From the NCBI GenBank assembly GCA_024641305.1, contig JAHEDI010000009.1, positions 32,174 through 96,173 of the forward strand: a DNA stretch of 64,000 nt, given 5' to 3'. The notes under the pieces are model-generated. The model saw nothing but the letters and a program-made list of their open reading frames with translations, did not search any database and was not told where the DNA came from. Positions 44,676 through 47,677 of this stretch are shown in pieces (within the stretch, counting starts at the first letter, position 1; every line of letters begins with the position of its first letter). The DNA comes from a bacterium (GTDB lineage: Bacteria; Actinomycetota; Acidimicrobiia; Spongiisociales; JAENVV01). A program made the position numbers and the translations under genes.

Positions 44676-44732
44676 CGCTGCGGCACCATTCCGGACAACA
44701 TGCTCCGAACGCAAGAAAAACTTCTCGTGGCG

Positions 44733-44760
44733 CGTCGAATCTGAGCGATGGGCAGCGTCT
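44733..44760 (+). promoter_or_regulatory. ECF-type promoter copy 1, CGTCGAATC-N13-GCGTCT
   Basis: Ends 27 nt before the ATG at 44788. Same motif and spacing at 46045-46072. Confidence 0.65.
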
Positions 44761-44787
44761 TTCCTTGCAACGACGAAAGGTTTCACG

Positions 44788-45462
44788 ATGAAGACAAAGG
44801 TTCTGAGCACGGTGGCCGTGTTCGCGATTGTGATCGGGGCGGCGGGCGCAGCTTTCGCCGGGGACGGCCTATCAACTGGTCTATATGAGGTGGACGTGCC
44901 AGGGATCGGGACCGTCGTTCTCACCGTCGCAGACGGAGTTGTCGAGGTCACCACGGTTCCGGACGGTTACACCGTGGAACTCGACTCCGACGACGATTCG
45001 GAATTCTTGATCCTCGACGCGGCAGGCGACACGGCTCTCAAGATCGAGTTCGAAGGTGATGAGCTGGAAATCAAGGCCGCCACCGCCACGCCTGGCACCC
45101 ATGTCTTCACGCTGCCGAATATCGGAACGGTAACCGTTGAGGTGGCCGCCGATGGTTCGATCACCTCGGTCGATGCTCCTGGCTTCACCGCCGAATGGGA
45201 TGATCACGGCCAGGTTACGTTCGTGTCCGAAGACGGAACGATCGAGATGCAGATCGAGATCGAAAACGGAGTCATCCAACTCCAGGTCGAGGTCGATGAC
45301 GAGTCGGATGCCGTAATTGATGACGAGTCGGACGACGATCATTCAGATAACGTGCTCTCAGACGACTCCGACGACCATGACACCGACGAAGACCACGATC
45401 GAGATAAAGGTCACGAATCAGATGACGATGATGATTCACATGACGAATCACACGACGACTGA
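44788..45462 (+). CDS. Secreted beta-rich protein (two internal repeats) with Asp/His-rich tail
   Basis: Signal peptide ending AAFA, two roughly 65-aa repeats (PGIGTVVLTVADG / PNIGTVTVEVAADG), acidic tail with 6 His. Confidence 0.8.
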   Translation: MKTKVLSTVAVFAIVIGAAGAAFAGDGLSTGLYEVDVPGIGTVVLTVADGVVEVTTVPDGYTVELDSDDDSEFLILDAAGDTALKIEFEGDELEIKAATATPGTHVFTLPNIGTVTVEVAADGSITSVDAPGFTAEWDDHGQVTFVSEDGTIEMQIEIENGVIQLQVEVDDESDAVIDDESDDDHSDNVLSDDSDDHDTDEDHDRDKGHESDDDDDSHDESHDD

Positions 45463-45487
45463 TCCTCGCTAAACCCAGCGACCACAG

Positions 45488-45516
45488 TGGGGGGCGGCCC
45501 AAGAAGCCGTCCCCCA
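45488..45516 (+). terminator. Rho-independent terminator-like hairpin
   Basis: TGGGGGGCGGC-N7-GCCGTCCCCCA followed by TTT, after the 45462 stop. Confidence 0.6.
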
Positions 45517-45523
45517 TTTACGC

Positions 45524-46102
45524 GTGACCGAAGATCTTGACGCCCTCGTAGCTGGAGTCGTTCAACGCGACAACCAGGCTTTCAGCCAGCTGTACGACCT
45601 GCTGGCCGATTCGCTCGCGGCTTTTGCCTTCCGGCTCGTACGAGACCGGCAGGCCGCCGAGGACGCCGTCCAACAGGCATTCATCGAACTGGCCAACGCC
45701 GCCCCCGGTTTCACGGGCGACGGTCGGAGTCTGCAAGCGTGGTTGTACAAGAGTGTTCGATTCAGCTGCCTAGACGAGTTCCGTCGCCGATCACGCCGGC
45801 CCGAAGTACCAACCGAAACGGTTCCCGAGGTTCCATTTGTCGGGTCGGACGCCGAACCCTATTCCGCCGAGCTCGCCAGCGCGATAGGCAGCCTCCCCTA
45901 CCGCCAGCAGCTCCTTCTCGATCTTCGCCATGTCCACCAGCTTTCCGGGTATGAGATGGCCGAGGTTCTTGGGATGACAAGACCGGCCGCGTACGCAGCA
46001 CTCGGCCGGGCCGAGAAGAACCTCAGAAAAGCATTCACTGATGCCGTCGAATCCATGAACCAGATGGCGTCTCTATCAGTGAAAGACGGAGAACATACGT
46101 GA
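45524..46102 (+). CDS. ECF RNA polymerase sigma-70 factor
   Basis: AFSQLYD, AAEDAVQQAF, LQAWLYK...LDEFRRR (region 2); LPYRQQ...YEMAEVLG...LGRAEKNLRK (region 4). Confidence 0.92.
   Translation: MTEDLDALVAGVVQRDNQAFSQLYDLLADSLAAFAFRLVRDRQAAEDAVQQAFIELANAAPGFTGDGRSLQAWLYKSVRFSCLDEFRRRSRRPEVPTETVPEVPFVGSDAEPYSAELASAIGSLPYRQQLLLDLRHVHQLSGYEMAEVLGMTRPAAYAALGRAEKNLRKAFTDAVESMNQMASLSVKDGEHT
46045..46072 (+). promoter_or_regulatory. ECF-type promoter copy 2, inside the sigma gene 3' end
   Basis: CGTCGAATC-CATGAACCAGATG-GCGTCT, ending 26 nt before the anti-sigma GTG at 46099. Confidence 0.65.
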
Positions 46103-46866
46103 TCGACCCAATTGAACTGCTCAGCAGGCAAGTCCCTGCCATCTCGATTGGCGCCGAAACGCGTTCACGCCATCTTTCGCGAATTCACGCTTCGCTAGTC
46201 GCCCCCGTCGCGGGTCCTCCCGCTTCTCTATTCGACCTCCATCCGATCACAACGTCAATCGTCAACAGGTTCCGCTCGTTCGATTGGCGACAAAGGCTCA
46301 CTGCTGGCCTGGTTGCTTTCATGGTGGCAATTCCTTCAGCGGCAGTGGCCACAGAAGGCAGCCAGCCCGATACGTGGTTGTATCCGGTCAAGCTGGCTGT
46401 CGAACCGATCTGGCTCCTGGTTGACGACGAAATCGTGGCTCAGCACCGAATCGAAGAGTTGCGGCTGGCCCTGCGTGATGACCTGCCAACGGACGCCCTA
46501 CTCTCCAGAGCCGATGAGGCGGTTAACCGACTCGATCCTGACTCGATTTGGCGTGATGAGTTTGCCCTGATCGAACGCACGGTCAAGGAACGGGCCGCCG
46601 ATGTTGAAACGACGACAGACACCGAATCCAAGGCTGTGATCGATTCCCCGGTGGTCGACGAGTCCGCTGGAGCGGAGAGCTCCCCGAAGGTCGATGAGGC
46701 CACGGAGCCTGCCGGGGATGCCAACCACTCTCCAGAATCAAGCGAGATTTCCGACCCGGACGACAATGGGTCCTCGCACGACTCGGACGATTCGGACCAC
46801 GACTCGGACGACGAAACACACAGCTCAGACGATTCCCACGACGACGACCACGAGGGCGACTCATGA
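46099..46866 (+). CDS. Putative anti-sigma factor, DUF5667-like, with Asp/Ser/His-rich tail
   Basis: GTGA overlap with sigma; N-terminal helix, TM/signal segment, SQPDTWLYPVKLAVE...HRIEE pattern, acidic His-containing tail. Confidence 0.72.
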   Translation: MIDPIELLSRQVPAISIGAETRSRHLSRIHASLVAPVAGPPASLFDLHPITTSIVNRFRSFDWRQRLTAGLVAFMVAIPSAAVATEGSQPDTWLYPVKLAVEPIWLLVDDEIVAQHRIEELRLALRDDLPTDALLSRADEAVNRLDPDSIWRDEFALIERTVKERAADVETTTDTESKAVIDSPVVDESAGAESSPKVDEATEPAGDANHSPESSEISDPDDNGSSHDSDDSDHDSDDETHSSDDSHDDDHEGDS

Positions 46867-47507
46867 TCCACAAAACGATACTGATCGGCGCACTTGTGAC
46901 CCTGGCTGCCTGCTCGGGGACCGGAGCACCTGCATCAACGGCCTCGGTAGAAGGGCCCACGCCGGTCTCCACCGTCGGGGTCACTCAGACCCCGATATTC
47001 GAGACGACAACCGTCCCCGCTCTGAGCCAATTCGAGGCCGCCCTCGACTCGACGATCACGGCTGGCTCCTACGAGTTTGGCGGCCAACTGATCGCGTATG
47101 TTGGAAGCTCTACCGTCACCACCAACCTGCATGGTTGGGTCGACGGAACCAGCCAACTGATCGTCACGGAGGCCACCAGCGGGGTCGTCGAAACCCTGGT
47201 CGTAGATGGAATTGCATCGGTGACCCAAAACGGGTCAACGTCGACGGTCGATCTCGGGGCAGTCGAGAGCGCTCCTTCGTTTGACCTTCTCAACGCCATT
47301 GACATTCAGGAAGAGACACCCGGCATGGTCAAAGGAACGGTGAAAGGATCTTCAGCCGACGTTGATGCCGCCTCTGGGGACCTAAACGTGACAGTCTGGT
47401 ATTCGACCGGAATCAGCGCCTACGAGATATCGGACCCGAACGGTGCCTGGGAGCTGTCAATGACGTTCTCCAACGTTGGGACGTTTGACTCGACATCAAC
47501 TCCCTAG
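46863..47507 (+). CDS. Lipoprotein, LppX/LprAFG-like (LolA-like fold)
   Basis: Lipobox LAAC, Thr-rich linker, beta-rich domain ending LSMTFSNVG. ATGA overlap. Confidence 0.6.
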   Translation: MIHKTILIGALVTLAACSGTGAPASTASVEGPTPVSTVGVTQTPIFETTTVPALSQFEAALDSTITAGSYEFGGQLIAYVGSSTVTTNLHGWVDGTSQLIVTEATSGVVETLVVDGIASVTQNGSTSTVDLGAVESAPSFDLLNAIDIQEETPGMVKGTVKGSSADVDAASGDLNVTVWYSTGISAYEISDPNGAWELSMTFSNVGTFDSTSTP

Positions 47508-47677
47508 GCATCGCCAGGGCGTACCCGTTGGGCGGCCAGTACTCACCCTCGGATTGACGAAAACGATGCCCGTCTGGGACCGCGCAGCCTGAAGGCGCGA
47601 GTATATTCAACCATGTCCCCGCCAGGTCGATTCAGATCAAAGGGCGGCAAGATTCCATATGCAACAAGGAGATTCGA

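Follow-up and report, generated by a model that had tools for sequence, protein, structure and literature searches.

The closest described arrangement is the rpoE-rseABC operon of Escherichia coli, in which the sigmaE-dependent promoter rseA P3 lies inside rpoE (Rhodius et al. 2006, via PMC8595263). As presented in the latter account, P3 precedes rseA by over 230 nt and gives rise to a regulated leader of 228 nt; it transcribes only the anti-sigma factor and its downstream partners, while the operon as a whole is transcribed from another cognate promoter farther upstream, and negative feedback is thereby built in. Canonical autoregulated ECF operons (Casas-Pastor et al. 2021, PMC7826278) encode a sigma factor consisting of regions 2 and 4 only, together with a co-transcribed, translationally coupled membrane partner, and the bipartite promoter in front of them is conserved, with CGTC in the -10 element. 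The gene family of the module described here appears to be previously unstudied, and its layout, by analogy, resembles the known E. coli arrangement.

The module lies on the + strand of the window, the whole stretch of 64,000 nucleotides that was analysed, which derives from the 3,421,925-bp (3.42 Mb) assembly of an uncultured Acidimicrobiia bacterium. It would constitute a self-contained ECF sigma unit of an Acidimicrobiia-specific, uncharacterised ECF clade. The order of elements is a predicted promoter, P1 (44733-44760); gene 1, an ORF for a secreted protein of 224 aa (44788-45462); a GC-rich hairpin (45487-45517); the sigma gene (45524-46102), with a second predicted promoter, P2 (46045-46072), inside it; ORF3 (46099-46866), for a 255-aa membrane protein with a single pass, putatively an anti-sigma factor; and an ORF for a lipoprotein of 214 aa with a LAAC lipobox (46863-47507). 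As with rseA P3, the predicted cognate promoter P2 lies within the sigma gene, in the same orientation and ahead of the putative anti-sigma start, and would transcribe only the anti-sigma gene and the one downstream, while the second cognate promoter lies upstream of the whole module. Unlike P3 as depicted in PMC8595263, P2 falls within the final 19 codons of sigma, and its predicted leader is about 18-20 nt long. The module also differs from rpoE-rseABC in that a target gene and a hairpin separate the upstream promoter from sigma and the embedded promoter fixes a conserved peptide tail on the sigma factor, as well as in lineage (Acidimicrobiia), motif and anti-sigma type. The sigma regions, the coupled membrane partner and the CGTC-type bipartite promoter are shared with canonical ECF operons; unlike in these, the promoter precedes the gene for the secreted protein and not sigma, and the partner lacks a recognisable class I anti-sigma domain.

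The two promoter predictions start from a motif, CGTCGAATC-N13-GCGTCT, that an earlier, sequence-only reading of the window had located at 44733-44760 and 46045-46072 on the + strand; both matches are exact. The genome-wide scan which that reading called for, computed directly on both strands of the whole assembly, returns only these two exact copies, with 0.009 expected from base composition. By a weight matrix built from sites in orthologous modules, P1 has the top score of the genome (31.4 bits), P2 scores 26.6 bits and the next best site 16.8 bits; because the scan yields no additional site in this genome, the regulon is predicted to consist of the module alone. The -35 element of P1, GTCGAATC, is at 44734-44741 and its -10 element, CGTCT, at 44756-44760, with transcription predicted to start at about 44767-44770; the corresponding positions for P2 are 46046-46053, 46068-46072 and about 46079-46082. 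The same reading placed the copies 26-27 nt before a start codon, and the distances are 27 nt for P1 (ATG 44788) and 26 nt for P2 (GTG 46099). Its remark that an AGAAAA tract precedes each copy by about 20 nt is correct for the window, where the tracts read in the sequence (44714-44719 and 46025-46030, + strand) lie 19-20 nt upstream, start-to-start, but does not extend to the orthologues. A conserved UP element was considered and rejected, since the sequence is not conserved and the 48 P1 sites show only a weak patch of A/T enrichment (0.62-0.71 at -16 to -13); the tract upstream of P1 may be such a weak UP-like A/T patch.

Conservation is evident at both places. Among 66 non-redundant orthologous modules, [G/A]TCGAATC-N14-CGTCT is present once in 48 at the P1 position, 24-39 nt before the signal-peptide gene upstream of sigma, and a second, in-frame copy lies in the sigma 3' tail (P2) in 33, counts that are shaped in part by the pattern used for collecting the sites. 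P1 is retained even where sigma identity falls to about 45%, and the N14 spacing is invariant in the 48 P1 and 33 P2 sites. Outside the search pattern, the two sets share CC at -2/-1, cGG before CGTC, T after CGTC, and a GTG 8-10 nt downstream. When the 1.1 kb upstream of sigma is analysed de novo, with no prior pattern, the motif halves emerge as the most widely shared 8-mers. The bipartite -35/-10 structure, CGTC-type -10 element, fixed spacing and conservation upstream of orthologous modules are those of an ECF-type promoter, and they support the view that both copies behave as cognate ECF promoters. Since a conserved bipartite promoter lies upstream of the operon, the candidate consensus that had been proposed for the group is readable from the sequence and can be written as CC-GTCGAATC-N14-CGTCT, or CC-GTCGAATC-N10-cGG-CGTCT. 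A literature search linking GTCGAAT with ECF factors found only primers and unrelated text, and the ECF classification paper gives no motif for this group.

There is a close association between the motif and the sigma factor. In a survey of 81 related genomes, 20 contain both, six the sigma only, seven the motif only and 48 neither (Fisher p = 2e-8); the six sigma-only genomes carry variant motifs, and a reversed-pattern control gives a single match. The motif is essentially confined to the module in every sigma-bearing genome and nearly absent from genomes without the sigma, where most motif sites fall inside ORFs, apparently by chance, and two represent module fragments or relics. A sister genome has a third exact site, which was considered as an extra regulon member and rejected: it is inside an ORF and looks like chance. 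From this co-occurrence and the ECF-like geometry we infer that the adjacent sigma recognises the motif.

The sigma factor itself is readily classified at the level of the superfamily. Pfam detects Sigma70_r2 (5e-15), Sigma70_r4_2 (1e-7) and no other domains, and the score for TIGR02937 (sigma70-ECF) is 74.2 bits, above the cut-off of 42.9. The protein has regions 2 and 4 but lacks 1.1 and 3, and its length of 192 aa is within the range of about 170-220 aa, which places it among the ECF (group 4) sigma factors. Assignment to a named ECF group or equivalog (SigE, SigM, SigW, BldN, SigK and others) finds no support among 82 NCBIfam hits, all below their cut-offs apart from the superfamily model, the best of them being NF004113 (91 bits vs 208). 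The best PDB relatives reach E values of about 1e-7, and the homologues are Acidimicrobiia MAG proteins. Translation would start at a GTG with no Shine-Dalgarno sequence. Beyond the Pfam region 4 match extends a C-terminal tail (about residues 168-192), and it is in this tail that P2 resides.

P2 occupies codons 175-183 (V-E-S-M-N-Q-M-A-S) of the 192-codon ORF, as expected from the claim that the second copy is embedded in the last codons of the sigma gene. Across the 33 P2-bearing orthologues the glutamate codon is GAA in all 33, against a background of 34%; NCG (GCG/ACG) is likewise found in 33/33, where NNG has a background of 30%; TCT, which accounts for 5% of Ser codons, occurs in 25/33, and xTC in 32/33. 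The four codons between the elements vary freely, and the amino-acid changes that do occur, V to I and A to T, leave TCGAAT and CGTC intact. Because the orthologues are related, the binomial figures overstate independence, although with about 10 independent lineages the figure for GAA would still be about 2e-5. Judged from these directly computed biases, the constraint on P2 acts on the DNA and not on the protein. Its presence goes with a longer tail, the median being 29 aa with P2 vs 15 aa without, a difference of about 14 codons, and around half of the sigma family lacks the tail altogether. The distribution of P2 on the sigma tree is patchy; a single origin was rejected, as at least 5-7 gains or losses are required.

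The hairpin, flanked by the stop codon of gene 1 (45462) and the start of sigma (45524), has a 12-bp stem and a 7-nt loop, and the 81-nt stretch around it folds with a centroid energy of -30.4 kcal/mol (z = -3.2 vs shuffles). Computed over the orthologous loci, strong hairpins at the same place go with P2, being found in 24 of 32 P2-bearing loci vs 7 of 34 loci without P2, with mean best free energies of -25.3 and -17.6 kcal/mol, respectively (Mann-Whitney p = 2e-6). Compensatory changes are seen in 3/13 hairpin pairs within one family, and the structure matches no known RNA family in Rfam. The description of this hairpin as terminator-like is apt for the conserved GC-rich stem-loop but not for what follows it: an intrinsic terminator has a U-tract directly after the stem, only UUU is present here, and most orthologues have no U-tract. 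A simple terminator scan did not call the hairpin, because only three U follow, and a hairpin of this kind may not terminate at all; we infer that it either attenuates transcription or stabilises a 3' end. Neither a sigma-70-like promoter nor a further motif copy was found between gene 1 and sigma. With no other promoter detectable, a gap of only 6 nt between hairpin and sigma start, and no U-tract, transcripts from P1 that read through are still the most likely source of sigma expression. The proposal that the circuit operates rather than simple positive autoregulation is thus not supported, sigma having no second promoter that can be discerned.

The flanking genes are less easily placed. The chief output predicted for the regulon is the gene 1 product. 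This protein carries a signal peptide and a C-terminal tail rich in Asp, His and Ser, and its core is all-beta and made up of two repeats; its AlphaFold2 model has a mean pLDDT of 72.5, with blocks of 81-89 over about residues 31-170, and contains 15 strands. It belongs to no family in Pfam or NCBIfam, only five homologues were found, and a Foldseek search of the PDB gave no match (best E = 0.011, TM < 0.2). The other types of gene 1 across the modules likewise show no family except PT repeats.

Membrane proteins with the Pfam domain DUF5667 (PF18915) are encoded beside ECF sigma genes, and the sequence-only reading had assigned the module to a DUF5667 group. ORF3, whose start overlaps the sigma stop (GTGA), would encode a protein with one short conserved helix in the cytoplasm, a membrane-spanning helix, a DUF5667-like bundle of helices outside the cytoplasm, and a disordered Asp/His/Ser tail. 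AlphaFold2 places helical segments at residues 19-34 (the sole confident cytoplasmic helix), at 63-83 across the membrane and at 94-176; pLDDT is about 94-96 for residues 111-160. The protein has no hit in Pfam or NCBIfam, including the N-terminal four-helix class I anti-sigma domain of the zf-HC2 or RskA type, and no PDB relative by sequence (profile of 37 orthologues) or fold (Foldseek). The group assignment does not hold for the window's own protein, which has no DUF5667 hit up to E = 10, and six of the seven orthologues tested score 13.1-25.4 bits in the same segment, below the gathering cut-off of 27 bits. Their extracytoplasmic juxtamembrane segment (PGDxLYPVK...HRxEEL) aligns with the opening 60-70 positions of the profile, which is suggestive of a distant kinship only. 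No papers on DUF5667 were found. The lipoprotein gene, translationally coupled to ORF3 through an overlap of its start with the ORF3 end (ATGA), occupies the same position in related modules, matches no family in Pfam or NCBIfam, and comes last on the predicted P2 transcript.

Taken as a whole, the observations are probably best explained by a circuit in which P1 drives gene 1 and an attenuated read-through into sigma, and P2 supplies extra transcript for the anti-sigma factor and the lipoprotein. The sigma would recognise CC-GTCGAATC-N14-CGTCT, with GTCGAATC as the -35 and CGTCT as the -10 element, and transcribe from P1 the gene for the secreted beta-rich, Asp/His-tailed protein. Most P1 transcripts would probably be stopped, or trimmed back and stabilised, at the hairpin (45487-45517), and the fraction that continues into sigma, anti-sigma and lipoprotein would provide a damped positive autoregulation. 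The P2 transcript, with a GGAG ribosome-binding site in its short leader, would encode only the anti-sigma-like membrane protein and the lipoprotein, so that active sigma would raise its inhibitor more than itself, resulting in negative feedback and fast shut-off.

A stricter version of this circuit makes the hairpin an efficient terminator, such that P1 yields the secreted protein only, sigma is constitutively expressed from another promoter, and feedback is solely negative, via P2. The strength and conservation of the hairpin, its co-occurrence with P2 and the missing Shine-Dalgarno sequence at the sigma start speak for this version, but neither the 6-nt gap between hairpin and GTG nor the 3' region of gene 1 contains a promoter-like site, so that any transcript reaching sigma must cross a hairpin that lacks a U-tract here and in orthologues. 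Furthermore, modules without P2, where gene 1 and sigma are 33-60 nt apart with no hairpin, have the layout of an ordinary autoregulated operon, and the strict version is unlikely. It is more doubtful still that the element is bound by some other protein, be it a further ECF paralogue or a transcription factor. Recognition by the adjacent sigma is predicted from sequence, and the genome offers many ECF-like candidates, 33 at first look; the confinement of the motif to modules where the sigma is present nevertheless argues against another binder, as do the GAAT-type -35 element, CGTC -10 element, fixed spacing and distance of 24-39 nt to the start, which are the geometry of an ECF promoter. In addition, 30 loci around more distant ECF sigmas (28-35% identity) gave no match.

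A third alternative concerns the peptide that P2 encodes. Were V-E-S-x4-A-S maintained for a function of its own, for example contact with the anti-sigma factor, the likeness to P1 would be coincidental, and VESxxxxAS is indeed conserved in the protein alignment. That explanation is hardly credible in light of near-invariant synonymous positions filled by rare codons (TCT, GAA), of substitutions that preserve the nucleotide cores, of a tail that about half of the family does without, and of flanking CC and cGG equal to those at P1 sites. A more elaborate proposal, added here as a speculative and rather improbable one, is a closed extracellular feedback circuit, in which the secreted protein is the only real target of sigma and competes with or mimics the sensor tail. 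On this view the low-complexity tail of the secreted protein matches the one that the anti-sigma factor exposes outside the cytoplasm, and does so from locus to locus throughout the family; both tails may then share a ligand or surface, such as metal cations for the Asp/His tails. Hairpin and P2 may then set expression in the ratio gene 1 > anti-sigma > sigma, and the VES...AS tail of sigma may be without protein function, kept only for the overlying promoter.

The module provides a promoter consensus derived from sequence and a full predicted regulon for an ECF clade that is known from uncultured Acidimicrobiia alone, and the sigma and its motif could serve as an orthogonal sigma/promoter pair. 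The module is also a clear case of a regulatory element constraining coding sequence, in that the conserved C-terminal sigma peptide is explained by a promoter rather than by protein function, a caution against reading such conserved peptide motifs as functional peptides. The recurrent order of target gene, hairpin, and sigma with an embedded inhibitor promoter suggests selection for a particular expression ratio. This combination would extend the logic of E. coli rseA P3 to a distant Gram-positive lineage.

Four tightly packed, co-directional ORFs were called at 44700-47510 of the window: gene 1 (44788-45462; 224 aa, with a signal peptide), the sigma factor gene (45524-46102; 192 aa), a gene for a single-pass membrane protein (46099-46866; 255 aa) whose GTG overlaps the sigma stop, and a lipoprotein gene (46863-47507; 214 aa) whose ATG overlaps the stop of the preceding ORF. 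The sigma factor contains regions 2 and 4 only; it passed the ECF superfamily model and none of the group-specific sigma models. Its nearest relatives are proteins from Acidimicrobiia MAGs, and because identity falls sharply from about 45% to 28-35%, the latter with ECF sigmas of other phyla, it is by sequence identity a representative of an Acidimicrobiia-specific clade.

The membrane protein has no family match. The DUF5667 label of the sequence-only reading holds only approximately, as the family was matched in the juxtamembrane segment of six of seven tested orthologues, always under the curated cut-off. In an AlphaFold2 model, one short cytoplasmic helix (residues 19-34) is predicted with confidence and corresponds to a conserved E-x-R-x-x-H-L-x-x-I motif; it is followed by a transmembrane helix (63-83), by an extracytoplasmic bundle of helices (94-176), also confident, and by a tail that is acidic and disordered. 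Since PDB searches by sequence and fold also revealed no resemblance, the protein is a putative anti-sigma factor, judged only by where its gene lies, by its translational coupling and by its topology. In orthologues of one subclade (L018, L022, L025 and L075), an extra C-terminal beta domain with a weak CarboxypepD_reg match (...VELDVAYDTGIR) replaces the low-complexity tail. The gene 1 product is predicted to be all-beta and hairpin-built, ending in an Asp/His/Ser tail; no protein of related fold was found for it, and its homologues number only five. Its tail (45290-45459) has a counterpart, likewise rich in Asp, His and Ser, at the end of the anti-sigma-like protein (46730-46863). Composition was compared over 34 modules: the mature gene 1 product correlates with its own anti-sigma extracytoplasmic tail at r 0.55 vs 0.40 for tails of other loci, and shared 3-mers stand at 0.088 vs 0.061. 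Neither value was equalled in any of 5000 permutations; these figures include the uncorrected effects of genome composition and relatedness.

As the sequence-only reading described, CGTCGAATC-N13-GCGTCT is present at 44733-44760 (P1) and 46045-46072 (P2), with AGAAAA tracts and start-codon distances of 27 and 26 nt, P2 occupying sigma codons 175-183. The genome-wide scan proposed there returned only these two exact copies, both in the module, from both strands of the 3.42 Mb assembly (0.009 expected from base composition). With a weight matrix built from 81 sites of the P1 and P2 classes, the two score 31.4 and 26.6 bits, and the runner-up among 6.8 million positions, within coding sequence, scores 16.8 bits. 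In this genome, which is 97% complete, the regulon is predicted to consist of the module alone.

The motif is conserved in orthologous modules. Among 66 non-redundant modules drawn from related genomes, [G/A]TCGAATC-N14-CGTC(T) occurs once upstream in 48, always on the sigma strand and with identical spacing, 24-39 nt ahead of the start codon of the signal-peptide gene directly preceding sigma. The products of that gene are highly diverse and the promoter before them is almost invariant. A pattern-free 8-mer count over the 1.1 kb upstream of sigma gave CGTCGAAT, GTCGAATC, CCGTCGAA, CGGCGTCT and GGCGTCTC as the most widely shared words. Both site classes also share identical positions beyond the search pattern: CC before the -35 element, cGG before CGTC, T next to CGTC on its other side, and GTG at 8-10 nt downstream of CGTC. 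This GTG occupies positions +33 to +35, counted from the G of GTCGAATC (44767-44769 and 46079-46081), is enriched in both classes (about 25-33 of 48 P1 sites, which are non-coding, and 26-28 of 33 P2 sites, which are coding), and is probably the transcription start or initially transcribed sequence. Of 81 related genomes, 20 have both the sigma gene and an exact match to the pattern, 6 have sigma only, 7 the motif only and 48 neither (Fisher p = 2e-8); the sigma-only genomes carry variant motifs, and a reversed-pattern control gave one match. A relaxed pattern found no match at loci around 30 more distant ECF sigmas. Comparative sequence evidence thus strongly supports the reading of the motif as a promoter; the searchable literature yielded no description of the motif or of the sigma clade.

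P2 is found in 33 orthologues, always in frame, encoding (V/I)-E-S-x4-(A/T)-S in the tail past region 4. Conservation of the peptide rather than the DNA is effectively excluded by the codons used at the site, measured against the remainder of the same genes, and by replacements that keep the core. The Glu codon is GAA in 33/33 (background 34%), the Ala/Thr codon GCG or ACG in 33/33 (30% NNG), the final Ser codon TCT in 25/33 (5% of Ser codons), and the third base of the Val/Ile codon C in 32/33 (44%); AGY is never used for the first Ser. The GAA result alone has a probability of ~2e-5 even if only ~10 independent lineages are counted. Replacements of V by I and of A by T retain TCGAAT and CGTC, and the four intervening codons vary freely. 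Because P2-bearing sigmas have longer tails past the last RAE of region 4 (median 29 vs 15 residues; p = 5e-11), the tail appears to exist as a carrier for the promoter and for the next gene's leader.

The hairpin reported between gene 1 and sigma is real: it has 12 bp, spans 45487-45517 and gives, over an 81-nt stretch, a centroid energy of -30.4 kcal/mol (z = -3.2). A strong GC hairpin lies just upstream of the sigma start in 24/32 loci with P2 vs 7/34 without (Fisher p = 2e-5), and best free energies differ likewise (Mann-Whitney p = 2e-6). Its sequence varies from clade to clade; in one family, compensatory double changes affect 3 of 13 pairs, and the nine core pairs are never broken. From this co-occurrence and pairing, the hairpin is, on sequence grounds, a selected RNA or DNA structure that accompanies P2. 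Only three U follow the stem in the window, and neither there nor at orthologous loci is there a U-tract. No Shine-Dalgarno sequence precedes the sigma GTG at 45524 (45518-45526), and AAGG/GGAG precedes the starts of orthologues in other families; sigma translation may be weak or hairpin-dependent in the window's genus.

Only 6 nt separate the hairpin from the sigma GTG, and neither another copy of the motif (best -11 bits) nor a sigma-70-like promoter occurs in the interval from gene 1 to sigma, so that transcripts reaching sigma must traverse the hairpin. Where P2 is absent, gene 1 and sigma simply follow P1 as a compact operon of the ordinary kind. P1 would stay the autoregulatory promoter, the hairpin would reduce the share of transcripts continuing into sigma or stabilise the gene 1 message, and P2 would compensate by separately supplying anti-sigma and lipoprotein message. 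The feedback wiring is plausible; its negative arm, a separate transcript for anti-sigma and lipoprotein, was already proposed in the sequence-only reading. The further proposal of that reading, that the wiring replaces simple positive autoregulation of sigma, is unsupported and less likely, since P1 is read as still autoregulatory and the hairpin as lowering read-through or stabilising the gene 1 message.

The module is accessory within the genus, as five of seven same-genus genomes, two of them >95% complete, lack both sigma orthologue and motif. Four of the seven motif-only genomes have apparent chance matches inside or beside unrelated ORFs, and in G063 the site lies 34 nt ahead of an unrelated ORF. 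G018 has a P2-like site without detectable sigma: at L108 (G018:C103:1-3100, minus strand, position 570 of the reverse complement), a perfect copy with P2-type flanks encodes ...AVESIDPAAS... within an ORF of 281 aa. Similarity to sigma was not detectable at this locus, and the genome has no orthologue of sigma at E <= 1e-25; here a sigma 3' end may have survived as a relic together with its internal promoter. The P1-type site at L110 (G058:C53:800-3900, minus strand) precedes a ribosome-binding site and a start like that of gene 1 (MGRRALLIG...), with no sigma gene downstream; the locus resembles what is left of a module after decay or rearrangement. The second match in sigma-bearing G070 is P1 of its own module, separated by a contig break. 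Acidimicrobiia-type modules in MAGs labelled Verrucomicrobiales, Saprospiraceae, Acidobacteria, Kiloniellales and Gammaproteobacteria (L028, L058, L060, L063, L075) probably reflect binning errors rather than horizontal transfer.

A precedent is E. coli rseA P3, a sigmaE-dependent promoter inside rpoE from which rseABC is transcribed behind a leader of 228 nt (PMC8595263). There a cognate promoter within the sigma gene transcribes the anti-sigma operon only, and P2 would do likewise. Unlike rseA P3, the present promoter lies in the last sigma codons with a short leader, and the element is dual-coded and conserved in at least four families of one order, with several losses or gains; the module has a target gene and a hairpin between P1 and sigma, and no class I anti-sigma domain is recognisable in the partner protein. 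The internal-promoter logic is thus already established in E. coli, and by this comparison the present module is a variant of it, one that is well documented and testable.
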